Below are positions 14,983-39,780 of a stretch of 64,000 bases of DNA, one piece after another. Below the pieces are notes generated by a model, which was not told where the DNA came from, searched no databases, and worked only from the letters and a program-made list of their open reading frames with translations. Made by a program: the position numbers and the translations under genes. Within the stretch, counting starts at the first letter, position 1, and each line of letters starts with the position of its first letter. This DNA comes from a virus, in IMG/VR virus record IMGVR_UViG_3300036770_008729, positions 31,359 through 95,358 of that record, one strand, 5' to 3'.

Positions 14983-15336
14983 ATGGAAAATAAAATCACA
15001 AAAATAGAAAAACCTTGGGGTTGGGAAAAATGGATAGAAGTGAATGAACACTATGTAGTGAAGGAACTTTTTATGAAAAGTGGCAATTGTTGTAGTCTTC
15101 AGTATCATGAAAAAAAACACGAAACATTTTATGTTGTAAGTGGAAGAATGAAGTTTTATGTTGGGGAAAAAATAGAAAATTTAAATGAGTTCATTTTAGA
15201 ACCTGGTCAAAATTATGTCATTAAACCATTTATAATCCATAGAATGGAGGCGGTAGATGATTGTATTTATATTGAATGTTCAACAAATTTTCTTGATGAT
15301 GTTATAAGATTAGAAGATAAATATGGTAGAAAATAA
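14983..15336 (+). CDS. cupin-domain protein (sugar isomerase/epimerase-like)
   Basis: 117 aa. KPWGWEKW ... HRMEA fits a cupin_2 pattern. Confidence 0.4.
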   Translation: MENKITKIEKPWGWEKWIEVNEHYVVKELFMKSGNCCSLQYHEKKHETFYVVSGRMKFYVGEKIENLNEFILEPGQNYVIKPFIIHRMEAVDDCIYIECSTNFLDDVIRLEDKYGRK

Positions 15337-17880: not shown

Positions 17881-17888
17881 ATTTAATA

Positions 17889-18788
17889 ATGAAAAATAAT
17901 ATAACTTTTTTCGGAGCAAGTATAACTCAACAAGGTGGTGGATATGTCCATCATTTTTCAAATTTAAATCCACAATTCAAAATTAGTGTTTTTGGTTATG
18001 GATCAATGCATCTAAAAGATGCTGGTGTTTGTCATATTGACACTGTTTTGACATCTGATCCAGAATGGTGTTTTATAGATTGGTTCAGTACTGCTTATGT
18101 TGATGAGGCCAAAGATGATTTTGATGGAATTACACTTTATATAGATACCATACTTCATAAATTCTATTCACGTGGTATCAAACTTGTTTTTCTTACACTA
18201 CCAGAAACAGTAAGAGATAAAACATTAATACATCAACGGTTAAATTATTATCTAGAATCAAAGGGGGTTCCAACAATTGATATATCTAAATCTTTTGAGT
18301 CAAACATAAATCAGATATTAAGAGATGGAATACACTCAACTCCTTATGGTTCTGAGCAATATGCTAAATTAATTTCTGATAAATTCTTTAACGAAATATA
18401 CAACAAGCATGAGATTCCATCTGAATTTCCGAGTGTTACAAAATATTGTGATATTAAGAGTACTCAATTAAATGTAATTGTAAATAAAAACATTACGTTT
18501 ACTGGTAAGGGAGAAGTGATAGGAATTTCACAAATGTTAGGGCCATACACTGGACTTTTAAAGATTAATAATCAATTAGTTAATAATTGGGACAGATGGT
18601 GTTATTTCGAAAGAGAAATGGTAAATCTTAAATTTGAAATAGATGGTGTAACAACCATAGAGATTTTACAAGATCCGGTAGATACTTCAAGTTGTGAATA
18701 TAGTTGTAATTGGAATGTTCCAAAATTGTTAAAACTTAAGACTTTATACTATACTGGTAATATTGAAAATATCAATTTTGATAGGTAA
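17889..18788 (+). CDS. hypothetical protein, possible SGNH-like hydrolase
   Basis: ITFFGASITQQGG is weakly GDSL-like. Last gene of the plus-strand island. Confidence 0.25.
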   Translation: MKNNITFFGASITQQGGGYVHHFSNLNPQFKISVFGYGSMHLKDAGVCHIDTVLTSDPEWCFIDWFSTAYVDEAKDDFDGITLYIDTILHKFYSRGIKLVFLTLPETVRDKTLIHQRLNYYLESKGVPTIDISKSFESNINQILRDGIHSTPYGSEQYAKLISDKFFNEIYNKHEIPSEFPSVTKYCDIKSTQLNVIVNKNITFTGKGEVIGISQMLGPYTGLLKINNQLVNNWDRWCYFEREMVNLKFEIDGVTTIEILQDPVDTSSCEYSCNWNVPKLLKLKTLYYTGNIENINFDR

Positions 18789-22845: not shown

Positions 22846-23853
22846 TTAAAGGTCATTGAAGAAGTCATCTTCTTCAGCTGTTGCTGGTGTTGCTGAACCC
22901 TTTTTAGCTGAGAAGTTATCATCAAAATCAAAGTCATCTGACTGTGGTTTTGCTTCTGCCTTAGGTGCATTTGTATAAGAAGATGAAGCTTTACCTGTTA
23001 AGAAGTTAACAATCTCATTTATTTTAGCTTGTTGTTCTTCAGAAAGTTTTTTAGCTGCAAATTCTTCTAAATCGTGGTCTCTTTCTAATAAGAAATCTTT
23101 GATTTTAGCCTGAACACCTGAATCAATCTGACCATCTGAGTTAAGAGGAGCATTTTTGAATGCATTCTTATCTTTGAAGTAGATTGGAAGAGAAGATGTC
23201 TCTGGTTTGAACATACTCATTTTATAATCAGGATAAGTTTCATCACCAGTTTGAATTTCTTTCACAACTAATACGAAGTCTTTTCCAGATTTAAGGTCAA
23301 ATACATTACAAGGAACTCCAGAGATTTCTCCGTTTCTTTCTGCTTGAATTTTATCCTTAATAGTTTTACCATATTGGAAAATCATAATTTTACCAACTAA
23401 TTCTGGTTGTTGTTCGTCTTCAATAACTAAAACATAAGAATAGTATTTTTTAGAATACTTTAATTGTTTTGATTTTTCAATCAAAATCGCGTTCTTTGAG
23501 TTTTGCATTGTGTAATACAAATCAGTCAAAGGACATTTTTCGTTGAAATTCTTTGGTGAATCGAACCACCCTGAAAGTTCTTTTGGTTGTTTGATATCAA
23601 CATAGTGAGTAATCTTCTCAATTGCTGACTGGCCAACTTTGCCATCTTTTGTTAAGTTAGGTAAAAATCTTACTACAGATCTCCAACCTTTCTTTTTGTC
23701 TTTACATTTAGCCAAGTCTACACGGTAAATACCATCATTGCTTGTGCTTGTTTTTTGCTCGTTAAGAAAGTCCATTTTGCTGTCTAAACTGCCATTGAAT
23801 AATTCATCTAATTCTGCCATTTTGCTTTTTATTTTTTTAATTTTCAAATCCAT
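22846..23853 (-). CDS. T4 gp32-like ssDNA-binding protein
   Basis: WRSVVRFLP resembles the T4 gp32 IRFLPS region. FVLVVKE...DETYPDYK resembles the T4 FVLKVKQ...YDESK region. The acidic C-terminal tail ends EEDDFFNDL, as T4 gp32 ends ...DDLLNDL. Confidence 0.7.
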   Translation of the reverse strand: MDLKIKKIKSKMAELDELFNGSLDSKMDFLNEQKTSTSNDGIYRVDLAKCKDKKKGWRSVVRFLPNLTKDGKVGQSAIEKITHYVDIKQPKELSGWFDSPKNFNEKCPLTDLYYTMQNSKNAILIEKSKQLKYSKKYYSYVLVIEDEQQPELVGKIMIFQYGKTIKDKIQAERNGEISGVPCNVFDLKSGKDFVLVVKEIQTGDETYPDYKMSMFKPETSSLPIYFKDKNAFKNAPLNSDGQIDSGVQAKIKDFLLERDHDLEEFAAKKLSEEQQAKINEIVNFLTGKASSSYTNAPKAEAKPQSDDFDFDDNFSAKKGSATPATAEEDDFFNDL

Positions 23854-23961
23854 AAGATTTGATATTTGTTATATAGTTACTAATCAATAAAGTTTAATAA
23901 AATGTTAATTGTTTTTACTGAAAAAGTTACTAATAAATATATATCAAAAATTAAATTTGTT

Positions 23962-24924
23962 ATGGCTAAAAAATTTAAAATATTATCAATCGATGGTGGT
24001 GGTCTTAGAGGTATTGTTCCACTTCTTATTCTTAGAGAAATCGAAAATAAAACAGGTAAAAGAATTCACGAATTGTTTGACCTTATTACAGGAACATCTA
24101 CTGGTGGCATTATTGCATGTGGTTTATCTTGCACAAAAGATGGCAAATCACCAGCAATTACTGTAGAAAAATTAATTGAACTCTACACTGCTGAAAGAGA
24201 AACAATTTTTCCATATAAAAGAAACTTCTTTCAAAAAATAGGCAGCGGTATTAATTCTTTATTTAATCCTAAGTTTTCACCAGATGGACTTGATCGTTTA
24301 TTAACTGAATATTTTGATGATATGAGATTAAGTAATACATTAGTTCCAATTATTGTTACTTCTTATGATATCAAAAATAATGAAGTTGTAATGTTTAAAA
24401 GTAGAAGAAGTGGTGAGATTGGATATAACGCACTACTTAAAGATGCTTGTAGATCAACATCTGCTGCTCCTACATACTTACCTTCCTATAAATTGGCTTT
24501 TGGTGGAAAACAAAGAGTTCTTATTGATGGTGGTGTTTATATTAATAACCCTGCTCTTGGATCGGTATCTGATGCTTTAAGAAGCACTAAAGGATTAAAG
24601 ATTTCCGATATAGAAGTTCTTTCACTTGGAACTGGAACTTATCCAGCTGAGTTAGGGAAAAAAGATACTCCATCTTGGGGTTTAGTAAATTGGGCACAAC
24701 CGATAACAAATATAATGATGCAAGCCACTTCTAATGCGACTGAGTATGAATGTAATGAGTTACTGAAAAAACATTTAAGAATACAATTAAAAATAGATGA
24801 TCCTAAAATGACCGATATGTCAGATTCAAGACCTGGAACAGCTCAGTATATCATTGATAAAGTGGGTTCAGATATAATAAATAATAGTGAGATAATGAAA
24901 AAATTAGATGACTTTCTTAAATAA
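23962..24924 (+). CDS. patatin-like phospholipase
   Basis: LSIDGGGLRG oxyanion motif, GTSTGG (GxSxG nucleophile elbow), and LIDGGVYINNP (catalytic Asp DGG). Start at the internal ATG at 23962. Confidence 0.75.
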   Translation: MAKKFKILSIDGGGLRGIVPLLILREIENKTGKRIHELFDLITGTSTGGIIACGLSCTKDGKSPAITVEKLIELYTAERETIFPYKRNFFQKIGSGINSLFNPKFSPDGLDRLLTEYFDDMRLSNTLVPIIVTSYDIKNNEVVMFKSRRSGEIGYNALLKDACRSTSAAPTYLPSYKLAFGGKQRVLIDGGVYINNPALGSVSDALRSTKGLKISDIEVLSLGTGTYPAELGKKDTPSWGLVNWAQPITNIMMQATSNATEYECNELLKKHLRIQLKIDDPKMTDMSDSRPGTAQYIIDKVGSDIINNSEIMKKLDDFLK

Positions 24925-25675
24925 GATAGCTTGTAATTTCTTTAGTTATATCATTATTAGAATTGATTAAGTTTTTGTAAGTTTTATCATCTACCTTTAC
25001 AAAGATTGGATTAAATCCAATATAAGTAATCACTTCATTGCCAAATGGCAGTTCTCCTTCAATGTAATCTTCTAACCAAAATTCTTTATATGGTCTCCAA
25101 CCAGTAGCTTTATAGATTCTTATTAAAGAATCTATAACTATTTGTTTATTTTCTATAGAGAAGTTTCCACAATTAATGTTGATATAAGGAACCGCTGGTA
25201 TTTTCCCATTTTCTATATTATCGACAAAAAGTTGCAATGTTGGTTTATGTGGCAATTTATTTAATTTACTTAAGTAAATAGCTTCCTCAACCTCGTTAAA
25301 ATCAACTTCTTCTTCTATAATTTTTTTTGAATTTAATTCGTCGGGTCTTAGAAATATACTACCATATGTTTCATCATATATCAATTCACATTTTTTATTT
25401 TGCCAATCATCTGGATTAACTGACATTTCGTATGATATAGCACTTCTAATCTCTCTTTTATATGTGTGTAGAATTTCATATTTTGGATATATAAAGTATC
25501 CTGAAGAAATAAAATTTGCCTTACTTATTATATTATCATCTGATAAATCAAAAAGTAACTCTTGAAAATCTCTAAAATCAGGAAACTGACTTTTAGTTAT
25601 GGCAAAATCGGCTAAATGTCTAGTATCAGAATTATTAATTTGTTCAAATAGTTTATATGGCCTAATATGCTTCAT
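24917..25675 (-). CDS. CTS-motif family protein (putative capsid-packaged internal protein)
   Basis: N-terminus MKHIRPYKLFE|Q. Last gene of the minus-strand array. Confidence 0.5.
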   Translation of the reverse strand: MKHIRPYKLFEQINNSDTRHLADFAITKSQFPDFRDFQELLFDLSDDNIISKANFISSGYFIYPKYEILHTYKREIRSAISYEMSVNPDDWQNKKCELIYDETYGSIFLRPDELNSKKIIEEEVDFNEVEEAIYLSKLNKLPHKPTLQLFVDNIENGKIPAVPYININCGNFSIENKQIVIDSLIRIYKATGWRPYKEFWLEDYIEGELPFGNEVITYIGFNPIFVKVDDKTYKNLINSNNDITKEITSYLI

Positions 25676-26556
25676 TAATAGTTGAGTAATATTTTTATTG
25701 TATAATCATAAATATCTGTATTTGTGAATTGTCTAGTTCCCCTAGCGTGGTCAAAAATAACATCACTATAATCTAAAGTAGTGAGTATAGATGGTAAAAC
25801 TTTATCAAATTGACTTTCTAATTCTATTAAGTTCATCTTTCCTTTCATATAATTATCACCTTGACCAATTTCTATTACTATACAAGGTACATTCATTTCA
25901 ATAATCTTATCTATTGAGTAACTTCTCTTCTTATCAATATCTGAATTATGAATAACTGAATATTTACCATTTGATGTTTCAAAAGAATCACCTGATTTAA
26001 ATCCATAGTTATCAATATTAAAGTTAGCACATTGCCATTTTGGTTCTGTGACATAATAACTTTCATCACTTTGCCTCATTAAAACTGAAGGATATGAACC
26101 AATGTAAAATGTTGGAAAAGCAATATCTTTTATAATATGAATCATAGCTCTGAAATAATCTTTCTCATCTCTATTTCTAACTGTTAGAATTCCATTATAT
26201 TTATATTGAATTTCTTTGTTATAATTATCTGAATCTCCATAAGCGATACAAGTTGATACCCATTTAGATTTTTCATGTGGTAAATTATCAAATACATCCA
26301 TAAGTAATCTATCTTCTACATAATAAACATCTACTTTATTTAGAGCCGTGAATATTCTATCTACATGATTTTTTATCTTATTATAGTAACCATCCCCAAT
26401 AAAATGATTTGTCCATTTTTCTAAATCTTTAATTGGTTTTCTACCCCACTCAAAATCTTTAAGATCTTCAATCCAATCATGAATTCCGTATTTAGAATCT
26501 AATCCAATATTCATATTTTCATTTATAAAGTGATTATATTTCTTAATTATTTTCAT
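25675..26556 (-). CDS. CTS-motif family protein
   Basis: N-terminus MKIIKKYNHFINE|N. Shares a coordinate with the neighbouring gene at 25675. Confidence 0.5.
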   Translation of the reverse strand: MKIIKKYNHFINENMNIGLDSKYGIHDWIEDLKDFEWGRKPIKDLEKWTNHFIGDGYYNKIKNHVDRIFTALNKVDVYYVEDRLLMDVFDNLPHEKSKWVSTCIAYGDSDNYNKEIQYKYNGILTVRNRDEKDYFRAMIHIIKDIAFPTFYIGSYPSVLMRQSDESYYVTEPKWQCANFNIDNYGFKSGDSFETSNGKYSVIHNSDIDKKRSYSIDKIIEMNVPCIVIEIGQGDNYMKGKMNLIELESQFDKVLPSILTTLDYSDVIFDHARGTRQFTNTDIYDYTIKILLNY

Positions 26557-26833
26557 AGATTTTATTTATTAAAATTGCTAAATTAATATCTTTTTCTGTA
26601 ACAATATCACCAGAATCATGCGTTGAAAGAGTTACAATAACTTTGTCAAACATCCATTCAATTTTTGGATGATGATTTTGTGATTCTGATTCTGTTGCCA
26701 CTTGATTAATAAATTGTCTCGCTGATTCAAATGAATCAAAAGTAAACTCACTGGTTAATTTTTTACCATCATTTTTCCAACTTTTTAAATCTTCAGTTGA
26801 TTCATATATTCTATAAGATTTTAGGTGCTTCAC
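26543..26833 (-). CDS. CTS-motif protein with pterin-4a-carbinolamine dehydratase/DCoH fold
   Basis: N-terminus MKHLKSYRIYE|S. SQNHHPKIEWMFDKVIVTLSTHD...EKDINLAILINKI closely parallels PCD/DCoH ([20 protein letters not shown]...ERDINLASFIEQV). Confidence 0.55.
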   Translation of the reverse strand: MKHLKSYRIYESTEDLKSWKNDGKKLTSEFTFDSFESARQFINQVATESESQNHHPKIEWMFDKVIVTLSTHDSGDIVTEKDINLAILINKIYENN

Positions 26834-27273
26834 TTTCTAAAAATTATTTTAATGGATTGGTTTTCTGCCATCCATTGACCAACTTCTAAATCTTCAAGTT
26901 CTATTTTCTCTACATTATCTTCTGATGGATCTGAACTGTATTCATCTTGTAAAAGTATTGTATATTTCCAATCTTTCATAAACTCAATAGACCTTCTAAT
27001 ACAATCCATTAATTCTGTAGATATTTGAACTTCTCTATAATCTGATACGTATTCTTCATCATCATCAAATCCAGGATCGAAATCTCTATGATATGGTTCT
27101 TCATCTCCAAATGAAATATAAACTGTGTAGTAATTAGATATATCATCACCATCTGCCCAAGCAATCCACTCTTCATCAGGATGACTATGTTTAACATCTA
27201 AAAAGATGTCTTCTAAATCAGCTTTGATTCTATCAAAGTTCTCGAATAACTTATATGTTTTTAAATGTTTCAT
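26830..27273 (-). CDS. CTS-motif family protein, highly acidic
   Basis: N-terminus MKHLKTYKLFE|N. Rich in D/E (DFDPGFDDDEEYVSDY). Confidence 0.5.
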   Translation of the reverse strand: MKHLKTYKLFENFDRIKADLEDIFLDVKHSHPDEEWIAWADGDDISNYYTVYISFGDEEPYHRDFDPGFDDDEEYVSDYREVQISTELMDCIRRSIEFMKDWKYTILLQDEYSSDPSEDNVEKIELEDLEVGQWMAENQSIKIIFRK

Positions 27274-27521
27274 TTCTCTTCTCTTCTCTTCTTCATTAAA
27301 TCTTTAATAAATTCTTTTATCTCATCATTGCAATCTGGAGTAGGTAAGAAGCCATATCCTCTCATTCTTGATGACCATTTGATCTGACCAATAACCTGAC
27401 CATCTTTACTAACATTATAAGTATCGGTTTTAGCACCTTTCTTTTTAGTTTGTAAAGTGAACTTTAATTTAGAAACTTCTTTTTTAGTTTCAAATAATTT
27501 ATATGTCTTTAAATGTATCAT
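27270..27521 (-). CDS. CTS-motif family protein, small and basic
   Basis: N-terminus MIHLKTYKLFE|T. Body is K/R-rich and 83 aa. First gene of a 5-gene overlapping operon. Confidence 0.45.
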   Translation of the reverse strand: MIHLKTYKLFETKKEVSKLKFTLQTKKKGAKTDTYNVSKDGQVIGQIKWSSRMRGYGFLPTPDCNDEIKEFIKDLMKKRREEK

Positions 27522-27548
27522 TTGAAAAGTTTTAGATGTTTCATAAAG

Positions 27549-27559
27549 TATATATTAAA
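27549..27559 (-). promoter_or_regulatory. TTTAATATATA box (candidate phage promoter element)
   Basis: Minus strand reads TTTAATATATA about 28 nt upstream of the 27521 start. Confidence 0.3.
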
Positions 27560-27568
27560 TACACAAAA

Positions 27569-28102
27569 TTAAATACTTAATTCAACCTTTTCTCCAGATG
27601 GGGGTGAGAAAGAAACACTTTTCAAGTTATTAAACTTATATTTATCGTCTAAATTTATATAATTTTTACCAGTACCTTTATTTACATAGCAAATTGTTAT
27701 GTGTGGTTTGTAATCGGGATAAGATTCTTCATTCGGTAGTGTTTTTAACATATCATGTAGCTTCTGTAAATCAGGAGTTTTCTTAACATTAAACTTAACT
27801 ACATCATAATCTTTATTCTCGAATAAATCTATACCTTCAATTTCTATGTTTAGTGGTTTTGCAAATGAGGTCAAAATCTCTTGAACTTGTTCTGATGTTA
27901 CTTCTGGTTTTAATCCATATAATAAAGTCAAATGTGGAAAATCTTCTATACCCTGATTTTCCTCTGGATTATAAATATCTTCTTTTTTTATTTTAGAAGT
28001 TATTTCATCCCAATTTGTGAAAGGAATCTTTAACATCGCACAACCAAATTCGTGCTGACCTGATGATTCTTTAATAAACTGTATATAACTTTTTATCCTC
28101 AT
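27569..28102 (-). CDS. CTS-motif 2H phosphoesterase (LigT/2',3'-cyclic phosphodiesterase-like)
   Basis: Start set at the internal Met, MRIKSYIQFIKE|S, as an ATGA overlap with the upstream gene. Two H-x-T-x motifs (FPHLTLLYGL and KPHITICYV) about 85 aa apart. Confidence 0.55.
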   Translation of the reverse strand: MRIKSYIQFIKESSGQHEFGCAMLKIPFTNWDEITSKIKKEDIYNPEENQGIEDFPHLTLLYGLKPEVTSEQVQEILTSFAKPLNIEIEGIDLFENKDYDVVKFNVKKTPDLQKLHDMLKTLPNEESYPDYKPHITICYVNKGTGKNYINLDDKYKFNNLKSVSFSPPSGEKVELSI

Positions 28103-28638
28103 ACTGCTCCTTGTATTATTATTCTCCACTCACCACCTTTATTATTATAAGAAAATTTAAAATAAACTCCTATTTCAGATTGTATTCTTTTTACTGCTAC
28201 TAAAAAGTCATCAAATTCCTGTGTAATCTTTTTTCTTCTTTTATCTTGTTCGGCCATTTCTAACTCAGCCTCTTTTTTAGTCATTACATCTATCGATGGA
28301 TTATCTTCAAATTCCATTTCTTGAGAGTCCCAAGTTATTTCACCATCTGATGATATTCTACCAGTCATATCTACAAATTCTGTTCTTGCTCCTGATGTGA
28401 TATAAACATCTTCCTTTGGCATCATTCTACAATTAAAATTAGGAAATCCCCAAATAGAAATTGACATATCATCACCAGACCAATCGGTTCTATTTTCAAT
28501 CCAACTCCATCCATTATCTTCAAATTCTATGAAACATTCTTTAATTGTATCCAATACCTGCTGATACACTTTACGCATGTGAATTGCATATGGATGAGTT
28601 TCTTCAGTATTTTCATTAAATCTTTTTAAATGTTTCAT
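28099..28638 (-). CDS. CTS-motif family protein
   Basis: N-terminus MKHLKRFNE. Confidence 0.5.
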   Translation of the reverse strand: MKHLKRFNENTEETHPYAIHMRKVYQQVLDTIKECFIEFEDNGWSWIENRTDWSGDDMSISIWGFPNFNCRMMPKEDVYITSGARTEFVDMTGRISSDGEITWDSQEMEFEDNPSIDVMTKKEAELEMAEQDKRRKKITQEFDDFLVAVKRIQSEIGVYFKFSYNNKGGEWRIIIQGAV

Positions 28639-28654
28639 TTCATATATTTATTAA

Positions 28655-29575
28655 TTATTCTAATCCTAATTCTTGGAGTATTTCATGCAATTTATCTATT
28701 TTTATCATTATTGCTTCATCCTCAAACCATGATTCTAAACCTTCACCTTCATATTCAAAATCATCATCTAAATCAGCATATAATTTCATTGTTGAGATTA
28801 CATCACCTAATTTAAATTTATTGAATACAGGGTCTAGTATCTTATTAAGATTTCCTAAAAGTGAAAGACTATTATCCCACAATCTTCCAAAGTATTTTGT
28901 TTTGATAGCATCACTAACTTTACAGGTATCTAGATAAGTTTTTAATTTATTCCAATCAGGATTTACATAAGTTTTAGTCCAGTTTGGAGTTAGCTGGTTT
29001 CCAAGTTTATCAAATCTATCTATACGAGTTTCTATATGAGCGTAATCTCTTAAAACTCCTAAGTCACTTAATAAAGAAGATGTATATCGAAAGAGAGAAG
29101 GTCTTCTCATATCTTCTTCTCTAAATGCGGCTTTATTTGGTATTTTACCAAAACAATTCCAGAAATCACCTCTATCACCAGTGGCGACTTTTGTTGTATC
29201 AAAAGGAATGACTACATAATCGACAGATTTACCTTTTACAAATCCTGCACCATGTGTGAAAGCTCTTCTTGAAGAAGCGCAACATAAACCTTTATTTCTT
29301 CTCGGCCAACCTTTCCACGAGTCTAAGTTGGAAGTAAGTGTATTATGAACATCGTTTGATGAGTATGGGTCTATTCTAAGAGATGTTGATGACTTTGGAT
29401 CTACTAAAACAAAATCACCTCTATTTTCATCTTTTCTTAAAATAAGAACATCATCAGTATAATCATCACCCCAAGATAAAAACTTTTTGCAATTTTGTTG
29501 CAATATTTTTACTACTTCTTCTTTAGTGAGAATAGTTGATTTTAAAGTTTCATTAAATCTTCTTAAATGTTTCAT
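28655..29575 (-). CDS. CTS-motif family protein
   Basis: N-terminus MKHLRRFNE. Confidence 0.5.
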   Translation of the reverse strand: MKHLRRFNETLKSTILTKEEVVKILQQNCKKFLSWGDDYTDDVLILRKDENRGDFVLVDPKSSTSLRIDPYSSNDVHNTLTSNLDSWKGWPRRNKGLCCASSRRAFTHGAGFVKGKSVDYVVIPFDTTKVATGDRGDFWNCFGKIPNKAAFREEDMRRPSLFRYTSSLLSDLGVLRDYAHIETRIDRFDKLGNQLTPNWTKTYVNPDWNKLKTYLDTCKVSDAIKTKYFGRLWDNSLSLLGNLNKILDPVFNKFKLGDVISTMKLYADLDDDFEYEGEGLESWFEDEAIMIKIDKLHEILQELGLE

Positions 29576-30273
29576 TTTAGGTATTTATCAAAAACTTCTT
29601 CAATTTTTGGTTCTAATTTTGTATAATCTATATCAAATGTTTTGGGCATAATAGATACTATCTCATCTATGTTATATGGCTCTTTTCCAATAGTATACCA
29701 ACTTCTATTCTTTTTCATCCATAGATAAAAAAGAATATAAGCATTTGATTTTTGAATATATTCTTCAGTGTCAATTATTTTATCTAATGACCATTTCTTA
29801 ATTTTTTCAACAGTTCTTTTTTCACAATCAACTTCTATATCAATAGATGTTCTTATTTCCTCGGCAATTACATTTAGATCAACATCCTCTTTTCCAGCCA
29901 ACCATTCATCAGTTTGAACTAATCCTATATTATTAGTCCAAGTAGGATCGTTTTCTAAAAACTGATCCATGTGAGATGATTCGTGTAATAATATAAGAAG
30001 CCAATAAGATATATCTTTTCCCATAGCACAAGCTAGAAGTCTATTATCTCCATCAAAATAACCATTACAAAATATATTTGGTCCTCCTAAAGAAACACCT
30101 TTTTCAGGTGATAGAAAAAGCTTAATGTTATTTTCTTTGGCAAAGTTTTTTAAGTGGTCAATAAATAATTTAACTTTTTCAATCTCTTCTTTTGTTAATT
30201 TACCAAAGTTAAACTCACCACCGTGTGGATTATCTATTTCCTGAAAGTCTTCAAATAATTTTAAGTATCTCAT
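29572..30273 (-). CDS. CTS-motif protein with HEXXH zinc-metallopeptidase-like motif
   Basis: N-terminus MRYLKLFEDFQE. LLILLHESSHMDQ contains HExxH. Confidence 0.5.
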   Translation of the reverse strand: MRYLKLFEDFQEIDNPHGGEFNFGKLTKEEIEKVKLFIDHLKNFAKENNIKLFLSPEKGVSLGGPNIFCNGYFDGDNRLLACAMGKDISYWLLILLHESSHMDQFLENDPTWTNNIGLVQTDEWLAGKEDVDLNVIAEEIRTSIDIEVDCEKRTVEKIKKWSLDKIIDTEEYIQKSNAYILFYLWMKKNRSWYTIGKEPYNIDEIVSIMPKTFDIDYTKLEPKIEEVFDKYLK

Positions 30274-30279
30274 AAAAGC

Positions 30280-30290
30280 TATATATTAAA
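30280..30290 (-). promoter_or_regulatory. TTTAATATATA box
   Basis: Minus strand reads TTTTAATATATAGC about 7-17 nt upstream of the 30273 start, immediately after the methyltransferase terminator. Confidence 0.3.
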
Positions 30291-30320
30291 ATAAAAAAAC
30301 CATCTATAAAGATGGTTCTT
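30290..30320 (-). terminator. rho-independent terminator
   Basis: Plus strand reads aaaaaaaccatctataaagatggtt. On the minus strand this is a hairpin (aaccatct/agatggtt) followed by a T-run. It overlaps the methyltransferase stop codon. Confidence 0.5.
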
Positions 30321-31041
30321 CTAGTCTAAGATTAGCTAACTCACAATACTCTTTAGTAATGTCAAATCCGACATACCTTCTGCCTAACTTATTGGCGACT
30401 GATGTAGTTGTTCCACTGCCATTAAATGGATCAACCACAACTCCGCCAATGTAAGAGTGCATCTTAATACATCTTTTAGCCAACTCTTCCGGAAAGGGAG
30501 CTGGGTGTTTTCTTTTCTTAGCACTTTCTGGTGCGATTACCCAAAGACCATTTGTCCAGTTAATGAACTCTTCTTTAGTTAAGTCGGTTTGACCTTTCTC
30601 AACTATCTTTGGAGAACCTTTATGAAAATTAATAATCATCTCAAAGGGTGGAAGAATTCTTGGATTGCTTGGACTCATCCAACTACCCCAGGCAGTTCTT
30701 TTAGGAATCTGATTTTTATTCCAAATAATAAACTCTCTAAAAGTAAATCCAGCTTCTTGAAATAACCTTGTGAATGTTGAGTAACTTGGTTCATTCAATT
30801 GAGATTGAAAGCAACCAATTTGTAGGCAAAATCTACCACCATCTTTTAATACACGGAAGCTTTCGGAAATCCAAACTTTACACCATTCATAATAAGCCTC
30901 TAACTTCATAGAGTCATCATGGTCTTGATAACTGATATTAAGATTGTATGGTGGTGAAGTAAAGATTAAATCAACAGAATTATTTTCCATTGATTTGAAA
31001 CCTGAGATGCAATCCTGATTGTATATTTTATTAAATTCCAT
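30304..31041 (-). CDS. DNA methyltransferase (beta-class N4-cytosine or N6-adenine)
   Basis: N-terminal catalytic motif IFTSPPYN (SPPY). C-terminal VVDPFNGSGTT is the SAM-binding FxGxG motif. This permuted beta-class order suggests an orphan methyltransferase with no adjacent restriction enzyme. Confidence 0.75.
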   Translation of the reverse strand: MEFNKIYNQDCISGFKSMENNSVDLIFTSPPYNLNISYQDHDDSMKLEAYYEWCKVWISESFRVLKDGGRFCLQIGCFQSQLNEPSYSTFTRLFQEAGFTFREFIIWNKNQIPKRTAWGSWMSPSNPRILPPFEMIINFHKGSPKIVEKGQTDLTKEEFINWTNGLWVIAPESAKKRKHPAPFPEELAKRCIKMHSYIGGVVVDPFNGSGTTTSVANKLGRRYVGFDITKEYCELANLRLEEPSL

Positions 31042-31103
31042 ACTTATTTAAAAGTATATTTTTATTTTGAGAATAAGTTTTTATCTTTGTGTAAAATTAA
31101 AAT

Positions 31104-31292
31104 ATGGCAACAGAAAAAAACATAGTAAAGTTAGAAAAAGAAATCCGAGCTAAAATGATGCAAATTCGCTCCGGTAAAACAACACCCAAAGATTCTGGTA
31201 TTGGTAAGTTAATCAACTTGATGAAAAGTTTTGATGAGCCGTTACACGGACAAATTATGAATGAGTATAAACAATTAATAACTAAACAATGA
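31104..31292 (+). CDS. small hypothetical protein
   Basis: 62-aa ORF with an ATG and a plausible operon position. Confidence 0.3.
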   Translation: MATEKNIVKLEKEIRAKMMQIRSGKTTPKDSGIGKLINLMKSFDEPLHGQIMNEYKQLITKQ

Positions 31293-31298
31293 GTACAA

Positions 31299-31508
31299 AT
31301 GACAAAAACAATTAAATTTATCTTGATTACTTTCGCAGTAATCTTACTCGAAACTCTCTACTTCGAGTTCGCGGTCAGTAGAGAAATTAACCTATGGATA
31401 GGTAGTATCCTTTCCATTTTAGCGGTGTTCCTTCTATTAGGATACGGACACTATATTTACAAACTCCTAATTGATGTATTAAAAATTAAAAACAACGAAA
31501 ACCAATAA
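31299..31508 (+). CDS. small membrane protein
   Basis: 69 aa with two hydrophobic segments (ILITFAVILL and IGSILSILAVFLLLGY). Immediately upstream of the SPFH gene. Confidence 0.35.
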   Translation: MTKTIKFILITFAVILLETLYFEFAVSREINLWIGSILSILAVFLLLGYGHYIYKLLIDVLKIKNNENQ

Positions 31509-31511
31509 ACT

Positions 31512-32495
31512 ATGATTTCACTTATTATTCTTTCAGTTTCAATCCTAATCTCTTTAGGATTTCTCTATTCAACTAGAGATAATGCCTTTACTATCACACA
31601 AGATAAGTATGGCTCAACAAATAAACAATTTAAAATTACATGGTTAACAAAACCAGTTCTTATTTTAATAATTGGTATATTGACCTCTATCATTCAACCA
31701 TTCGCTTTAGAGCGAGTTGATGCTGGTCATGTTGGATTAAAAGTTCAATTATCCGGAGACAATCGAGGTATATCTGATTATCAATATAAAACAGGTTGGG
31801 TAGTTCAGAATACTTGGATTGAAAAATTATATGAGTTTCCTACATTCCAACAACATATTGAATATGGTGACCAAACTGTAATCACAAAAGGTGGTTTCTC
31901 TGCTATCATTAAACCTACATTCAACTACTCACTTAAATCAGATGCTGTTGGTGATATGTTTGAACAATTACGATTAGGAGTTAAAGAAATTGAGCAGGGT
32001 TGGCTTATGACTGCTATTGTTGGTTCAGTAAATGATGTTGCTAATAGATGGGTAGTTGATGATATCTTTAATAAAAGAGAAGAGTTTGAATCAGCCATTA
32101 TCACAGAGTGTAATAAAAGAACTTCTAAATGGTTTATTATCTCTCAATTAAGAACTAACATTGTTCCACCTGACGCACTTAAATCAGCCATCGAAGCAAA
32201 AACAAAAGCTGTTCAAGATGCTCAAGCCGCTATTCAACAAGCACTTGTTGCAGAAGCTCAGGCTAAAAAGAAAATTGCAATTGCTAGAGGTGACTCGGCT
32301 TCTGTTGTTATTAATGCTTCGGGTCAGGCGGCAGCTACTATTATCACAGCTGATGGTGAAGCTAAGGCGATGAAATTAAAACAAGCACAATTATCTCAGT
32401 TGTATATAGATTATATCAGAGCAACCAATTGGGATGGTAAGTATCCTCAAACGATGTTAGGTGGTAATACATCCACTTTGTTGAATATAAAATAA
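31512..32495 (+). CDS. SPFH/band-7 (stomatin/prohibitin-like) membrane protein
   Basis: N-terminal TM helix. HVGLKVQLSG start of the SPFH domain. C-terminal Ala/Gln-rich coiled coil typical of the family. Confidence 0.55.
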   Translation: MISLIILSVSILISLGFLYSTRDNAFTITQDKYGSTNKQFKITWLTKPVLILIIGILTSIIQPFALERVDAGHVGLKVQLSGDNRGISDYQYKTGWVVQNTWIEKLYEFPTFQQHIEYGDQTVITKGGFSAIIKPTFNYSLKSDAVGDMFEQLRLGVKEIEQGWLMTAIVGSVNDVANRWVVDDIFNKREEFESAIITECNKRTSKWFIISQLRTNIVPPDALKSAIEAKTKAVQDAQAAIQQALVAEAQAKKKIAIARGDSASVVINASGQAAATIITADGEAKAMKLKQAQLSQLYIDYIRATNWDGKYPQTMLGGNTSTLLNIK

Positions 32496-32511
32496 TCTAA
32501 ATTGTTAGAAA

Positions 32512-32542
32512 CAAAAAACCCACCATTGGTGGGTTTTTTATT
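32512..32542. terminator. bidirectional rho-independent terminator
   Basis: aaaaaaCCACCAttGGTGGGtttttta lies between convergent genes, with an A-run and a T-run flanking a GC stem. Confidence 0.6.
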
Positions 32543-33428
32543 GTAGGTTATAGGAAAACATTGTATCTGAACCTTCTTCTTTATCATCATTTTCTGAATA
32601 GAAGTTAATTCCCTGATAAACTAATTCTGACATGACTTTCTCAAACATATCATAAGTAGCTCCGTGTTGTTTCATAAAATCTTCAAACTCTCTATAAGTT
32701 ATTTTTTCACCTTTATCTTGTCTTGCTTTTAGTTTAGGAAATAAATCTTCTACAATTTCCTCTACTAATTTGAAATCAGCTTTATCTCTAAATCCAGATT
32801 CAAAGCTTTCGTGAAATCTTTTAATTTTATTTTTACGATAAGGACTTAATAATCCTTTAACATTCCAAGAAGGAATAAATTGTTTATTCTTTTTTTCAAA
32901 ATCTTCATAAGATTCAATTCCTGTATCAACTGGGTTTTGAATATATTGTATGTTAGCTCCTTGTTTATTCATATCAGAAACTCTATCACCAATATCAACA
33001 CCCTTAGTCATTTTACGTAGTTTTTTCCATTGATCAACAGTTTGTTTTCTAGGTAAAGAACCTTCATTTGTTTGTGTTATAACTTCGACTGTTCCATCTA
33101 AATTGAATTTTGCAATAAATGGTGTTTCGATAGCAACATCTCTTCCTCTTAAATCACAAATGATGATTGGTCCGAACTTTTCTTGAAATTTAAGTATTTC
33201 TGAGTTAATAAATTGATCAGGTCCAAAATCTAAAGTTCTACTTACATTACGAGCACTGACTGGTTGATTTGGTAATAAACATTGTTTTTCATCATTAGTT
33301 TCTGCTAAAAATACAAATTGAAATACATCACCTGGATTGTTTTGAATTAAAGAAACTAACTTTCTAGAACCTGTGGTGTATTCCGCACTTCCTCCAAATG
33401 GTTTTAACTGACCTCTAATAATCTTCAT
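32538..33428 (-). CDS. hypothetical protein
   Basis: 296-aa ORF at the end of the CTS sub-operon. N-terminus MKIIRGQLKPFGG lacks the clean motif. Confidence 0.4.
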   Translation of the reverse strand: MKIIRGQLKPFGGSAEYTTGSRKLVSLIQNNPGDVFQFVFLAETNDEKQCLLPNQPVSARNVSRTLDFGPDQFINSEILKFQEKFGPIIICDLRGRDVAIETPFIAKFNLDGTVEVITQTNEGSLPRKQTVDQWKKLRKMTKGVDIGDRVSDMNKQGANIQYIQNPVDTGIESYEDFEKKNKQFIPSWNVKGLLSPYRKNKIKRFHESFESGFRDKADFKLVEEIVEDLFPKLKARQDKGEKITYREFEDFMKQHGATYDMFEKVMSELVYQGINFYSENDDKEEGSDTMFSYNLQ

Positions 33429-33868
33429 TATAATTCGTTAAACTTTTTGATTTTTCCACCATCATTAGAAAGTGATTTTTCACCTTTAAGTGGTTCGTGA
33501 TTTGTCTTTGCTTTTTTAGTAGGAACATCTACTTCTTGTAAAGAATTTTCAGGCTTTAATTTCTTATCCTTTTTTCCAAACTTTATAAAGTTTTGCTTTT
33601 TCATATCTTTACTAAGCTTCTGAGATTTATTATCTATTGCATACATTTTAACAGTTGATGCAACTTCTTCTGAAAGAAACTTTTCACCATCTAATTTTTT
33701 ATTAGAAGGCTTTGTTGATTTCATAATCATTTTAGGATTACTCAATGATTTATCAGCATCTAACTTGTTATTAGTTGGATTTTTAGCTTTTACATGACCT
33801 TGCTCCTTAGCATCATCAGAAAGATTTGGTAGCTCATCATTAATAGGATGTTGTTTCAAATGTTTCAT
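33428..33868 (-). CDS. CTS-motif family protein, Lys-rich with internal repeats
   Basis: Internal Met gives MKHLKQHP. Three repeats of KLDxxKxLS(N/E). Highly basic. Confidence 0.4.
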   Translation of the reverse strand: MKHLKQHPINDELPNLSDDAKEQGHVKAKNPTNNKLDADKSLSNPKMIMKSTKPSNKKLDGEKFLSEEVASTVKMYAIDNKSQKLSKDMKKQNFIKFGKKDKKLKPENSLQEVDVPTKKAKTNHEPLKGEKSLSNDGGKIKKFNEL

Positions 33869-33895
33869 AGTTATATTTATCAATTATTTTTTTAG

Positions 33896-34342
33896 TTAGA
33901 ACTCATCATCATCTATTATAGTTGGATCATATGGATGAAAATCTCTTCTTTTCTTATAGTTAATTGTAGGTTTTTTCTCAATAAAATCTTCTATTTTATC
34001 ATACAACCTTAAACACTCATCATCTATATCTTTTAATTGTAATTCTTTACCATTGTAACTGATAGTTCTGTTGTTATCATCAAGTGTAACATTTCCATCC
34101 ATTAGATATATGATGTAAACACCGGGTTCGATTTCTACTACACCTTTTACAACTTTTATACCATCTTGAAGGCGAGCGGATTGAATAGAGTGATTGTCAA
34201 TCATTCTGTGAATTTTTTCTAATGTATCTCTGTCCTCTTTTTTATCGATGTTCAAAACTCTACGAGTTCCTCTTACAAGTCTTTGCATTAAAGGTTCCTT
34301 TTTAGGCTCTTCAAATTCTTCGAATAATTTTATATACTTCAT
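33896..34342 (-). CDS. CTS-motif family protein
   Basis: N-terminus MKYIKLFEEFEE. TATATATTAA box lies 5-14 nt upstream, plus strand 34347-34356. Confidence 0.5.
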   Translation of the reverse strand: MKYIKLFEEFEEPKKEPLMQRLVRGTRRVLNIDKKEDRDTLEKIHRMIDNHSIQSARLQDGIKVVKGVVEIEPGVYIIYLMDGNVTLDDNNRTISYNGKELQLKDIDDECLRLYDKIEDFIEKKPTINYKKRRDFHPYDPTIIDDDEF

Positions 34343-34382
34343 ATATTATATATTAATTTTTTTTTATATATTTGTAATTGAA

Positions 34383-34911: not shown

Positions 34912-37900
34912 TCAATTTATTTTGTTAACAATTTTGTTTATAACCTTAATATATTCTAAATCTATAATCTTTATTAGGTAAATTCCAGTCTTAGATTCTC
35001 CTAAATCTTGTTTTATTTTAGTAATACCTTGACTAACACTTTGCTTTTTTTGACTTATAAGTTTACCACTAATATCATAAACTTCTATCATAAGCTGTGT
35101 TTGATTTTTAGTAATATATTCTACAACAAACTCATTTTGTGTTGGATTAGGATATACTTTTGCATCCACTTCATCTAATTTAATTTGTGAAGTCTTAACA
35201 ATCAAACTATCATTATTAGGATTTGCTTGTCTTTGTGTTATACAACCAGCTTGTATTACTAAAGTTCTCCAAGTACTAGTTCCACAATTAGTTACTGATC
35301 GAACTGATAAAGTTCCTCCATTGAATCCCGATGAGAATGTAACATCGATTATTCTACTAATGGAAGAACCAGTAGTTCCATTTGGTAACATCCATTGATA
35401 ACTTGTTGCGCCATTTACTGCTACAATACTGTAAGTGGATGTTGCTCCTATGTTACCACATGTTGGTCCTGAGATTGCTCCGGGCACTGGTGGTGTTTTA
35501 CTTATTGATAATGTTCTTGCTGTACTTCTAACACCACAAGCGTTTTGTGCTTGAACTTGTATAGTACCTCCAGTAAATTGTGGACTAAACTGTACTAATA
35601 CATTTCTAGTACCTTGACCTTGAACTATTGTGGCGTTGGATGGTGCTGTCCAAAAATATGAAGTCGCTCCTGATACTGTACTGCTTGAATACAATACATT
35701 ACTTGATGTTTGATCTACATTAGTATAAGCAGAACAAACATTTGTTGTACCTGTAATTCTAGTTGGTGTTGCAGGTGCATTAGTACCCGAACTTGTGACA
35801 GTTAAGGTACTTGGTGATCCAGTACCACAACTATTGATTGATGCCACTGTTATGTTCCCACTTACAAATGAACTTGTAATAGTGACTTGGATAGTATTAG
35901 TACCTTGACCATTGTTTAATGTAATACCATTTGGTACTGTCCAAGAATAACCAATAGTGGCGTCATACATTGGTGATATTGAGTATGAAGTAGTTGTAGC
36001 ACAAGTACTTGTTGGACCACTAATCGGACCTGGTATTCCAGGTAAAGAGTTGATTGTGATAGTAGATGAAGCTGATGATATACAATTGCCTGTTGATGCA
36101 GTGTATGTCATTGTACTTGTATTTTTAGCATAAACTGTATTTCTAATATCACCAGTATAAGATTGTGTTGCTGTTGGATTTATATATAATCCAGTTAATG
36201 GTGACCAGGTTACCATTGTTGGAGCATATATACCAAACTTCATGTTTGGACGATACTTACTACTTATAAGATTGTTTGCTTCATTAAGTGGTTCACAAAC
36301 TGAAAAGTCATTATCATAACCTCCATAAACTGAGTTAAATGAAGTTTGACTAAACTCTACTGCTGAGTTTGTACCAGTACAGTTGCTACAAGAATTGTTT
36401 ACATCATTGTCGTGACAGATCTCTATTACAATATTGTAAAGTGGATTCCATGTAAATGATTGATTAAAAGAATATACTTTCCATCCAACTGTAGGTGCTT
36501 GTTCTTGTCCAGTAGTGTAAACAGTTACAAAAGGACCTACGGTAACACTTAAAAGACTACCACTTTCTGTAATATAACCATAAGATAAGTTGTCATTTAT
36601 GGTGTGAGCTATTTTAATTGTAAAGTTATTTTGGTAACCAGTACCTTGTGATAGTACTTTTAATGCTAATGAATTTATATCACCAGCAACTAAACCAAGT
36701 GCAAGTAATTCTGATGATCTAATTAGATATTGCACTCTTGAACCTTCATAGCTACTTGTATAAGGTGTAATACCTGATTGACCAGTAAGAGTTGTATTGA
36801 CTCCTAATTGACGACTGAATGTAGCTGATCCTCCTGTTGCTGTTAATGTTGTAATTGAATTACTACAAGCAGTTGTTATTGAAGGTGTAACTGATAAAGC
36901 AGATGGTGTTGGGTTTATTTGTATGTCTACAGATGAAGAAGAACTACAACCATCTAAAGTCGATGTTAAAGTATATGTTCCTTCATTATTGTATGTAGCG
37001 TTATTAATAGTTGGTGACTGTTGTGATGATGTATAGTTATTTGGTCCAACCCAACTAAATGTATTACCAATATCAGAACTTCCAATTAAACTTATAGTTG
37101 AATTTTGACATACAGAACTATTGTTTGTACTAGCATCTGTTAAAGGTATAGCTTTTATAGTCACACTAACTGGTATATTTGATGAACCACATTCTGAGGT
37201 AATAGTTAGTGAGTAGTTACCAGCATCAGCATTTGTAGTATTGTCAATTAAGAGTGATGGTGTTTCAGCACTTGGATTGATTGATGGATCAATTACTATA
37301 CTATTTTTATACCATTGGTATTGCACTTGACTACCAGTTGCTACAACTGTTAAATCTATTGGATCATTAAAACAAACAGATGATATTGTTGATGGTTGTG
37401 AAACAATTTGTAAAGTAGGTATTCCAGTTATATTAATAACATCACTAACACTACAACTTCTGTAAGTTGAAGTTAAAGTATAACTATTTAATCCTACTAA
37501 AGCAGATGGTATAGTTGCATTTAAAGTACTTGCTGAAAAACTAGGACCTGTCCAACTGATTGTTGGTGCTACTGTATTTAAAGTAATGGTAATGCTCCAG
37601 TCATTAAATGTACCTATATCACCAGTATAGTCATCAGTAATACGAAGTGTCCAAACACCATCAGCACTTCCAGTTAAGTTAGAAAAAGGTTGCTCAGGTG
37701 TGTATGTTCCTGTGAATGGAGCTGTACCTGATGTTATAGCGGTACCTGAAGTAGAGAATACTGTGTTAACATAGTTGTCACCAGTACTTCCATTATCACT
37801 TGATAAATCTATTGAAGAACCATTTGGAGCAATTAAAGTTAAATCTAAGTCCGCATCAAATGGATGTGTTATGTTTAGTAATACTGAGGTTATTTGATTA

Positions 37901-39411: not shown

Positions 39412-39780
39412 TAATTACTTTTAGTATATATTCAATAAATGTAAAAATTGATGAATGAAAAAGAAAGAATCGAAATTTATACAAATTGTCTACAGAATTT
39501 CTACAAATAATTTTACTCCGATATTTGTTATTATCATCCTGGTAGATTTATCACTCTGGATAAATTAAGAAGTGATAAGTTAAATATGTTGGGGATTTAA
39601 TTTGGTCTCCAATAGATTTTTCACTATTTTTGTATTATGACTCTAAATGAATTAGAAAAAATAGCAGACTTTTATATGATGGATTTAGAATCTATCATTG
39701 ATGATATTGATGGTGCAGTAGGCTTTTGAGGAAAAACCTAAATCAGAAATAAGAAATGATAAATTAGAAGAATTGGGAAT

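Follow-up and report, generated by a model that had tools for sequence, protein, structure and literature searches.

Why should more than a dozen viral proteins that are otherwise unrelated begin with the same short peptide? The question is raised by a 64,000-nucleotide stretch of viral DNA (IMG/VR record IMGVR_UViG_3300036770_008729, positions 31,359 to 95,358), which in its full length we call the window and number from its first letter. A sequence-only reading of it had described about 11 consecutive minus-strand genes between 24917 and 34342, whose products differ in size, charge and fold and share what looked like a capsid-targeting propeptide of the phage T4 type. The eleven N-terminal strings quoted there are all present as read. 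We find that a tag of the form M-K-[HY]-[LI]-K-x-[YF]-x(1-4)-E, 10-13 residues long, opens 15-16 open reading frames (ORFs) of the window, and that scoring with a tag profile divides the window's ORFs into two groups, fifteen at 11-27 bits and all others at 8.1 bits or less. What the tag is attached to, where it occurs and what it resembles lead us to favor, with moderate confidence, the reading that it belongs to a T4-type system of capsid-targeting propeptides that has been greatly expanded.

The window is AT-rich (25-34% G+C) and, judged by sequence relationships, derives from a megaphage of the Mahaphage clade, kin to the largest phage genomes known. Its gp32 homolog (22846-23853) is 81% identical to that of LR756502.1 (642 kb) and 77% identical to that of LR745206.1 (635 kb), and the window shares synteny with the region at about 465-500 kb of LR756502.1. 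Both relatives are members of the Mahaphage clade, rank among the four largest phage genomes described in complete form and have predicted Bacteroidetes hosts (PMC7162821).

The proteins behind the tag have little in common. After removal of their first 14 residues, 113 of 138 tagged proteins are BLAST singletons within the set, and the cargo clusters that do exist are small, with five members at most. Pfam domains are found in about 9 of 129 tagged proteins (lysozyme, PCD, NUDIX, methyltransferase, 2H, PQ-loop, GNAT, HNH and DUF6576) and in none of the rest. The singletons and the unrelated folds uphold the earlier statement that family expansion does not explain the shared start.

At the sequence level, the separability of the tag as a module is seen most clearly in the family of the protein encoded at 29572-30273 on the minus strand. 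The HEXXH motif that had been noticed in this protein reads HESSH (residues 97-101), and HExxH is invariant in 120 of 120 homologs. About 85 of these 120 begin M[RK]YLKLFE[NDS]FQE.D.PHGGE, others start exactly at the conserved domain (ME-FNFGNL..., ME-LNNINL...), and a third group carries a different extension of ~30 residues, such that tagged and untagged members part precisely at the domain boundary. AlphaFold2 models this protein with a predicted local distance difference test score (pLDDT) of 87.8 and residues 1-18 below 50, and a second tagged protein (53072-54313) with a pLDDT of 78.7 and residues 1-20 below 50. In both models the tag is predicted to lie outside the fold, in line with the view that it is not part of one common structural domain. 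Foldseek searches with the two models gave no significant match in the PDB. Because the best matches of the HExxH model are zincins (IrrE/PprI, minigluzincins and anthrax lethal factor) at non-significant scores, we name it only an HExxH protein, possibly a zincin.

Selection on the tag appears to act mainly on the peptide. Codons at its conserved positions vary (CAC/CAT, TTA/CTA/CTT and AAA/AAG), replacements are conservative (L/I, Y/F and K/R), and orthologs retain a tag though its sequence drifts; it is from these three observations that we draw this conclusion. Short and charged, the tags lack the features of Sec, Tat, lipoprotein or type IX secretion system (T9SS) signals, and the window's only T9SS domain lies on an untagged 1499-residue protein. 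Transmembrane (TM)-like segments are present in 8 of 121 tagged proteins, a share (6.6% versus 12.9%, p=0.05) whose difference is marginal and is not counted here as evidence.

Chance and base composition do not account for the tag. A strict peptide pattern has 10 N-terminal matches and one internal match in the 20,702 residues encoded by the window, and a DNA-level pattern has six matches against 0.07 expected from 100 dinucleotide-preserving shuffles. Scanning all six frames for the tag core gave 12 sites, of which ten are at gene starts and one opens an 8-codon stub. AT-rich composition as the cause is ruled out by the shuffles together with three AT-rich control phages that lack the tag.

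The window is only a small part of the tag's distribution. LR756502.1 was surveyed from 14 assembled pieces with a loose tag pattern, and the tag was found at the start of at least 123 of 977 ORFs (12.6%) compared with 15 of 3383 internal Met positions; this count is too low because clear variants (MKHLKLFESF, MKYLESYQIFES) escaped the pattern. Tagged genes occur all round this genome, most densely in its first 100 kb, and encode proteins of 59-503 amino acids. A DNA pattern for MKHLKx[YF]NE occurs in more than 118 IMG/VR stretches, nearly always at ORF starts; further tagged ORFs adjoin (250 of 1529 ORFs tagged, among the matches listed), and these loci also encode T4-type portals, S77 proteases, tRNA synthetases and Por_Secre_tail proteins. 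Across 596 Gb of bacterial and archaeal genomes the same DNA pattern matches nine times; four of these matches resemble true tagged ORFs and sit on contigs of metagenome-assembled genomes with 21-37% G+C. Related phages have arrays of strongly differing gene content.

To compare genomes, about 40 kb around gp32 was sampled (the first 50 kb for PTm1 and MA9V-2), and ORFs scoring at least 10 bits were counted. By this measure 14 of 61 ORFs are tagged in LR745206, 8 of 59 in LR756502, 3 of 44 in LR756504 (636 kb) and 3 of 47 in LR756501 (735 kb), one of the latter reading MKTFNQFINE. Lak-C1 (0 of 53), PTm1 (0 of 58), MA9V-2 (0 of 59) and T4 have no tags in the sampled 35-50 kb. From the samples with and without it, we conclude that the tag is a lineage-specific viral feature and not a side effect of AT-richness. 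No cultured tag-bearing relative was found among these samples (PTm1, MA9V-2 and Lak-C1 being untagged), and the nearest relatives of the portal and capsid protein are all uncultured.

The closest known counterpart of the tag is the capsid targeting sequence (CTS) on T4's internal proteins (IPs), which in the T4 record AF158101 reads MKTYQEFIAE|A in IPII and IPIII and MKTFKEFTSTTTPVSTITE|A in IPI. A hidden Markov model (HMM) of the tag, made from 332 distinct megaphage and IMG/VR tags only, was scored on the 451 candidate N-termini of T4's 276 ORFs and ranked IPI 4th, IPIII 6th and IPII 7th. By our own arithmetic, the probability that two independent sequences both fall within the top 7 of 451 is ~2e-4. 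The profile's top T4 match is gp61.1 (AF158101 18966-19130), a hypothetical protein of 54 amino acids whose start, MKTFKEFIKE|D, is CTS-like with an I-K-E site, and which may be an unrecognised packaged peptide.

In T4, the first 10 residues of IPIII are enough for targeting, mutagenesis of the CTS indicates that residues 4 and 7 (Tyr and Phe) mainly govern targeting and residues 8 and 10 (Ile and Glu) processing, and gp21 cleaves after L/I-X-E (PMC9026906). A long form of the megaphage tag, K-x-Y-x-x-F-I-x-E (MKIIKKYNHFINE, MRIKSYIQFIKE and MIKRYQEYITE), has these key residues at equal spacing. The common form, MKHLKTYKLFE, has an aromatic pair three residues apart and an L-F-E ending. In a set of 134 tags, the first Glu is found between residues 8 and 14; Ser is the commonest residue at P1', and the P3 position of that Glu is hydrophobic in 87% compared with a background of 38% (I/L 42%, F/Y 43%). 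At the level of the motif, this fits the gp21 L/I-X-E rule and bears out the suggestion that the tag ends in a gp21-type site.

The likeness to T4 thus extends over several features: an N-terminal peptide of 10-19 residues common to unrelated proteins, an MK start, an aromatic pair followed by [IL]-x-E, loci that vary between related phages, and a T4-type portal, S77 protease and gp23 capsid protein in the tag-bearing lineage. There are also differences. The megaphage consensus has three extra residues at its front end (MK[HY][LI]K-), and its common short form ends in [YF]-N-E-S, with an aromatic residue instead of I/L at P3. T4 has three IPs, whereas one megaphage genome has more than 100 tagged ORFs with recognisable enzymes among the cargo. 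The megaphage protease is fused to a scaffold, the predicted host is a member of the Bacteroidota, and the megaphage system is known from sequence alone.

Other packaging systems are less similar. The inner-body and ejection proteins of phiKZ, 201phi2-1 and SPN3US likewise belong to giant phages, with 50-90 virion proteins and a gp21-related protease that cuts after Glu, and their propeptides are thought to direct proteins into the prohead, the protease (gp175/gp245) recognizing S/A-X-E (PMC5694885). Unlike the tags, which have 9-14 residues and a hydrophobic P3, these propeptides are mostly longer than 100 residues, lack a short consensus and have a small P3 residue (S/A/G), and the phages are of another lineage with other hosts. 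Peptidase_S80 matches in tag-bearing IMG/VR loci come along with S77 matches. The Dar anti-restriction proteins of phage P1 are packaged in the head in a DarA/Hdf-dependent manner and injected against host defence, but they are loaded through a hierarchy of partner proteins and have no common short cleavable N-terminal tag. Encapsulin cargo-loading peptides, in turn, are short terminal peptides that send unrelated enzymes into an HK97-fold shell; these are usually C-terminal and uncleaved, and the system is a cellular one without DNA or injection.

Head genes of the T4 type are found in the tag-bearing relatives. LR756502.1 encodes a gp20-type portal (222545-224260; Portal_T4 E=1e-57), a gp23-type capsid protein (227452-229167; Gp23 E=4e-28) and between them, at 225272-227371 (L007:29272-31368), a 699-residue protein whose first ~170 residues match a head maturation protease (phrog_207 E=6e-28, with a weak S77 match). 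The search for a gp21-like protease that the sequence-only reading had proposed was therefore successful in LR756502.1 and in tag-bearing IMG/VR loci, with the head genes lying outside the window. The middle of this fusion protein contains eleven 14-residue repeats of EY[IL]AE[NSH]L and is scaffold-like; judging from their sequence, a scaffold that destroys itself could plausibly be cleaved at these repeats. Their core, EYIAE, differs little from the EFIAE of the T4 CTS, and the protease is likewise fused to a scaffold-like region at L045:7272-9749 and L157:8724-10622. On four IMG/VR contigs (L042, L045, L107 and L118) a tagged protein of 121-136 amino acids with an acidic tail (MKHLKTYNEFNG...) is encoded between portal and protease, the position that is occupied in T4 by the core proteins gp67 and gp68. 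No similarity of this protein to T4 gp67, gp68 or gp22 was detected.

Many tagged genes are preceded by a promoter-like AATATATA box (usually TTAATATATA), which is mostly intergenic and oriented towards the downstream gene. In LR756502.1 the box lies 16-30 nucleotides upstream of the portal, large terminase, protease, capsid protein, tail fibre, tail and endolysin genes, and in the window it lies 20 nucleotides upstream of a gp13/Ad2 neck gene (42575-43378). Many tagged genes have it only 4-8 nucleotides upstream, as opposed to the 16-30 nucleotides of the head and tail genes, and at this short spacing it stands before many small genes. Within 60 nucleotides upstream, the box was found for 61 of 123 tagged and 138 of 854 untagged genes of LR756502.1. 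Window examples on the minus strand are at 27549-27556 (TTTAATATATA), 4 nucleotides before the ATG of a stub ORF, at 30280-30287, 6 nucleotides before the ATG at 30273, and at 34347-34354, 4 nucleotides before the ATG at 34342; further (TT)AATATATA boxes are at 39425-39432, 43399-43406, 43761-43768 and 54392-54399. Divergent gene pairs have near-palindromic versions of the box in common. The late promoter of T4 is TATAAATA. From its sequence and placement, the box is probably the late promoter of this lineage, and the analogy with T4 suggests, although not securely, that the tagged genes are late genes, some of them transcribed into nearly leaderless mRNAs. For a gp55-like late sigma factor there was no Pfam match, and a pairwise BLAST match to T4 gp55 was weak (E~1e-3) and is not relied on.

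Taken together, these features are consistent with the following sequence of events. Tagged genes would be transcribed with the head and tail genes from the AATATATA late-type promoter that they share. The tag, with its basic start and its hydrophobic or aromatic residues 4, 7 and 10, would bind the scaffolding core of the prohead, and the cargo would be enclosed by the gp23-type shell. A gp21-type (S77) prohead protease would then cut after the Glu of φ-x-E (φ, hydrophobic residue), freeing the mature protein within the head, and the same protease would chop the scaffold at its repeated EY[IL]AE sites, which like the protease gene are present in the relatives. Finally, the cargo would be expelled into the host together with the DNA. 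The set so delivered would include a PCD/DCoH protein, a 2H phosphoesterase, an HExxH protein and many proteins without a recognisable family, to which a relative would add a lysozyme, NUDIX and GNAT proteins and a methyltransferase. The original T4-type proposal is partly supported, and the computational tests all agree with it. We infer scaffold binding, encapsidation, cleavage and ejection for the tagged proteins; what the sequences themselves show is the modular tag, its likeness to the T4 CTS, the conserved φ-x-E ending, T4-type head genes within the lineage and a promoter-like box that tagged genes have in common with head and tail genes. An anti-defence role of the cargo is speculation, apart from one weak Acb1-like match. 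The boldest form of the capsid reading, that throughout the Mahaphage lineage (genomes of about 460-735 kb) more than 100 proteins, or roughly one gene product in eight, are sent inside the capsid by one short cleavable tag, we hold only tentatively and regard as somewhat doubtful.

Several observations weigh against a capsid destination. The window itself contains no head genes, the protease, scaffold and capsid protein having been seen only in relatives whose gp32 is 77-81% identical, and LR756500, a complete 462-kb relative, has no tagged gene between portal and protease. The likeness to T4 is short and the profile comparison is not clean: in T4, gp61.1, an internal Met of nrdC.4, MobB and Arn.2 score like or above the IPs, and because the tags of IPII and IPIII are identical, only two independent T4 sequences stand behind the match. 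The T4-like Bacteroidota phages Lak, PTm1 and MA9V-2 have no tag in the sampled regions. Methylase and GIY-YIG genes also have the box at 4-8 nucleotides, and late expression is thus not proven. The cargo includes odd members, namely an HNH endonuclease, a PQ-loop membrane protein and the eight proteins with TM-like segments, and there is some codon bias within the tag, for instance AAA at codon 2. Finally, a tag on at least 12% of the ORFs of LR756502.1 goes beyond any known packaged set and leaves room for a different destination.

That last point is one argument for a tag that is a true address or recognition peptide with a target other than the capsid, such as another phage-built compartment, a membrane, the phage's own DnaK/DnaJ/GrpE, or timed proteolysis or processing in the cytoplasm, since so large a share of ORFs is easier to understand as a general sorting or handling signal than as packaging. 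The modular tag, the selection on its peptide and its position outside the fold fit any address-label model. In its basic-hydrophobic composition the tag is like peptides that bind Hsp70 and amphipathic ones that bind membranes; in eight tagged proteins TM-like segments come directly after it, and gene content offers possible partners, the phage encoding HSP70, DnaJ and GrpE and a relative a putative ClpS-like protein. We nevertheless consider a non-capsid address unlikely: it leaves unexplained the likeness to the T4 CTS at the targeting and cleavage residues, the conserved φ-x-E ending, the tagged gene at the core position between portal and protease, and the promoter-like box shared with head and tail genes, and no candidate receptor or compartment gene was identified for it.

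Less probable again is that the peptide is a by-product of a cassette at the gene start, in which the promoter box and a start region tuned for leaderless or near-leaderless translation, in a host phylum not reliant on Shine-Dalgarno sequences, have had successive genes recombined behind them. The box at 4-8 nucleotides before the ATG of many tagged genes would imply such transcripts if it acts like a T4 late promoter. Codon usage at tag positions is biased (AAA at codon 2, 87% versus 61% genome-wide; TAT at codon 7, 98% versus 78%), stub ORFs such as MKHLKLFK* in the window and similar ones in LR756502 suggest recombination within tags, and array contents change strongly between related phages. 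However, half of the tagged genes have no box and are tagged all the same, inside operons behind ATGA overlaps, and many genes with a box at 4-8 nucleotides begin with unrelated peptides. Conservation is by amino-acid class (L/I, Y/F/W, K/R and Glu), with synonymous codons and codons of different families used freely, the pattern is kept across orthologs at 35-60% sequence divergence, and a cassette does not predict the likeness to the T4 CTS. The idea that the tagged proteins form one very divergent paralogous family, with the start as the last recognisable piece of a common domain, is largely refuted and very improbable. A few small cargo clusters of up to five members and tandem ORFs of similar size that look duplicated, for example in 10-16 kb of LR756502, are what it can point to; against it stand the 113 singletons among 138 stripped cargos, their unrelated and well-defined folds (PCD, 2H, lysozyme, NUDIX, GNAT, methyltransferase and HNH), lengths from 59 to 503 amino acids, and an HExxH family that occurs with and without the tag, which AlphaFold2 leaves unstructured.

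The CTS has already been proposed as a general loading route for varied proteins in T4-like phages (PMC9026906), and hypervariable internal proteins of T-even phages are known (PMC3012670). Full-text literature searches for tag strings (MKHLK, MKYLK and others) returned only unrelated bacteriocin and peptide papers, and searches on megaphages or Mahaphages and capsid targeting returned nothing on this topic. The T4 CTS principle is hence known, and no earlier account of this tag, or of huge phages using CTS-like tags, came to light. Relative to T4, the scale is the main novelty, alongside a different consensus, the short [YF]-N-E-S form, a protease fused to its scaffold and another host phylum.

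Should the tag prove to be a capsid address, ~12% of the genes of a huge phage would belong to a defined class of proteins carried in the virion and delivered at infection, which bears on the role of the hundreds of uncharacterised genes in such genomes. Virions would carry a large and quickly evolving stock of enzymes and effectors into the cell together with the DNA, and the T4 CTS principle would extend from three proteins of one model phage to a widespread environmental lineage. Injected proteins of uncultured phages could then be predicted from metagenomic sequence alone, giving a list of candidate early effectors (among them the Acb1-like 2H phosphoesterase and NUDIX, GNAT and HExxH proteins), and the tags would add to the short peptides available for bringing foreign proteins into phage capsids. 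Whatever the destination, it is unusual for a phage to sort more than 100 unrelated proteins by a virus-specific N-terminal label.

Within the window, the array is less continuous than the 11 consecutive genes first described. Nine tagged genes form an unbroken minus-strand run (24917-30273), five untagged genes follow (a DNA methylase gene at 30304-31041, three plus-strand genes at 31104-32495, and 32538-33428), and two further members lie beyond them (33428-33868 and 33896-34342). Coupling through ATGA-type overlaps holds for half of the run, four of its eight junctions being 4-nucleotide [A/G]TGA overlaps; the others are a 1-nucleotide overlap, a 14-nucleotide overlap and two gaps. The start codons of four tagged genes (encoding 233, 306, 179 and 177 amino acids) are the same in independent metagenome gene calls. 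As had been stated, the cargo proteins of the array range from 83 to 306 amino acids and include acidic (26830-27273) and basic (27270-27521) members, and most cargos of the window have no match in Pfam or PHROG.

The run, read here in order of coordinates and all on the minus strand, starts with a 252-residue protein without Pfam or PHROG match (24917-25675; MKHIRPYKLFEQ; 18.6 bits in the tag HMM) and a 293-residue protein with the long form of the tag (25675-26556; MKIIKKYNHFINE; 18.8 bits), whose orthologs, 42% identical, are at the syntenic locus in LR756502 and LR745206. A 96-residue protein with a GTG start (26543-26833; (M)KHLKSYRIYES; 18.4 bits) is confirmed as a PCD/DCoH (pterin-4a-carbinolamine dehydratase) protein (Pfam Pterin_4a E=2.2e-22). 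The acidic member has 147 residues (MKHLKTYKLFEN; 23.1 bits) and the basic one 83 (MIHLKTYKLFET; 17.9 bits); the LR756502 ortholog of the latter (L004:2733-2987) is 67% identical and begins MKYLESYQIFES. Just upstream of the basic member, after the box at 27549-27556, is the stub mini-ORF MKHLKLFK* (27518-27544, minus strand), whose stop overlaps the ATG of the next tagged gene and which by its sequence looks like the remnant of a tagged gene. Similar stubs, consisting of a box and a truncated tag directly upstream of intact tagged genes, occur elsewhere, for instance MKHLKKNKIEYIE* at about 10866-10910 of LR756502.1, and the truncated tags suggest that one way in which array genes turn over is by deletion or recombination inside tags.

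The next gene (27569-28102, minus strand) encodes a 177-residue protein, MRIKSYIQFIKES, with the predicted 2H phosphoesterase domain (Pfam 2_5_RNA_ligase2 E=9e-13; phrog_755) and a weak Acb1 match (Pfam E=1e-6). It had been read from an upstream GTG; its actual start is the internal ATG at 28102 (MRIKSY...), and its orthologs begin MIKKYLEFMKES. The run is completed on the same strand by a 179-residue protein (28099-28638; MKHLKRFNEN; 27.0 bits), a 306-residue protein whose cargo matches phrog_12810 (28655-29575; MKHLRRFNET; 19.2 bits) and the 233-residue HExxH protein (29572-30273; MRYLKLFEDFQE), which is encoded by the first gene of the run. Of the two members beyond the untagged genes, also on the minus strand, the 148-residue protein at 33896-34342 (MKYIKLFEEFEE) scores 23.0 bits. 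The other, a 146-residue Lys-rich repetitive protein quoted earlier as MKHLKQHP (33428-33868; MKHLKQHPINDE), is a weak member at 11.0 bits, lacking the aromatic residue, the Glu and hence φ-x-E. Its C-terminus, ...GGKIKKFNEL*, is tag-like and overlaps the start of the next gene (MKIIRGQL...), which may be a recombination scar or a coincidence.

Further members, which the sequence-only reading had proposed to look for, are present outside the reported span. They are a 140-residue protein (47731-48153, minus strand; MKRIKSYNQFES; 19.0 bits) with a box 5 nucleotides upstream (48159-48166), a 413-residue protein (53072-54313, minus strand; MIKRYQEYITES) with a box 23 nucleotides upstream (54337-54344), and a 204-residue protein (56210-56824, minus strand; MKIIKFTEFINE (MKIIKFTEFINEG); 13.0 bits) with a box 6 nucleotides upstream (56831-56838) and an LR756502 ortholog, 62% identical, that begins MKIRKFTEFINE. 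The tag of the 413-residue protein is the closest of all to T4 MKTYQEFIAE. Its family is unusually conserved and abundant, with 741 homologs, the top 120 of which are at least 64% identical and have N-termini of the form M-x-[IL]-L-K-Y-x-x-[YFW]-[IL]-x-E. The protein has no match in Pfam, PHROG or the PDB, the only proteins like it come from marine phages and are uncharacterised, LR756502 contains two of its paralogs, and it is in conserved synteny with HSP70 and an amidase. A very basic 53-residue protein on the plus strand (50772-50933; MKKIKRYKDF, MKKIKRYKDFNKK; 17.3 bits), in which Asp replaces Glu, is a possible but uncertain member. The RNA ligase at 49414-50682 (MNIKRYIPTYEE) fits a loose tag pattern and was rejected as a member on account of its score of 8.1 bits and its T4 Rnl1-like homolog.

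Around the tagged genes, a patatin-like phospholipase gene on the opposite strand (23902-24924, plus) lies between gp32 and the array and is not found in LR756502 or LR745206. Also absent from both is the untagged 1499-residue protein (34912-39411, minus strand), whose start resembles a signal peptide; it contains PKD-like, Ig and P-domain repeats and, at the C-terminus, a sorting domain for type IX secretion (Por_Secre_tail), and a AATATATA box lies 13 nucleotides upstream of its gene. A phage-encoded Por_Secre_tail protein supports a Bacteroidota host, and its domain content suggests that the phage uses the T9SS of the host. Of two N6/N4 DNA methyltransferase genes on the minus strand (30304-31041 and 43768-44460), the first is the untagged gene directly upstream of the nine-gene run. 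The window also encodes a complete DnaK/DnaJ/GrpE chaperone set (44461-45537, 46371-46847 and 51050-52915), a PrkA-DUF444-SpoVR trio (57142-61842), and a UV endonuclease UvdE, an IMPDH/GMP-reductase-like enzyme and an adenylate kinase (among 61875-62801, 41191-42267 and 48830-49417). At its other end, an 18-kb plus-strand block of ~24 genes (157-18788) is almost without counterpart in LR756502 or the sampled part of LR745206, only two epimerase/dehydratase-like ORFs matching these relatives. Its genes read as glycosyltransferases and sugar-nucleotide enzymes, and on this basis the block looks like a strain-specific glycan biosynthesis island.

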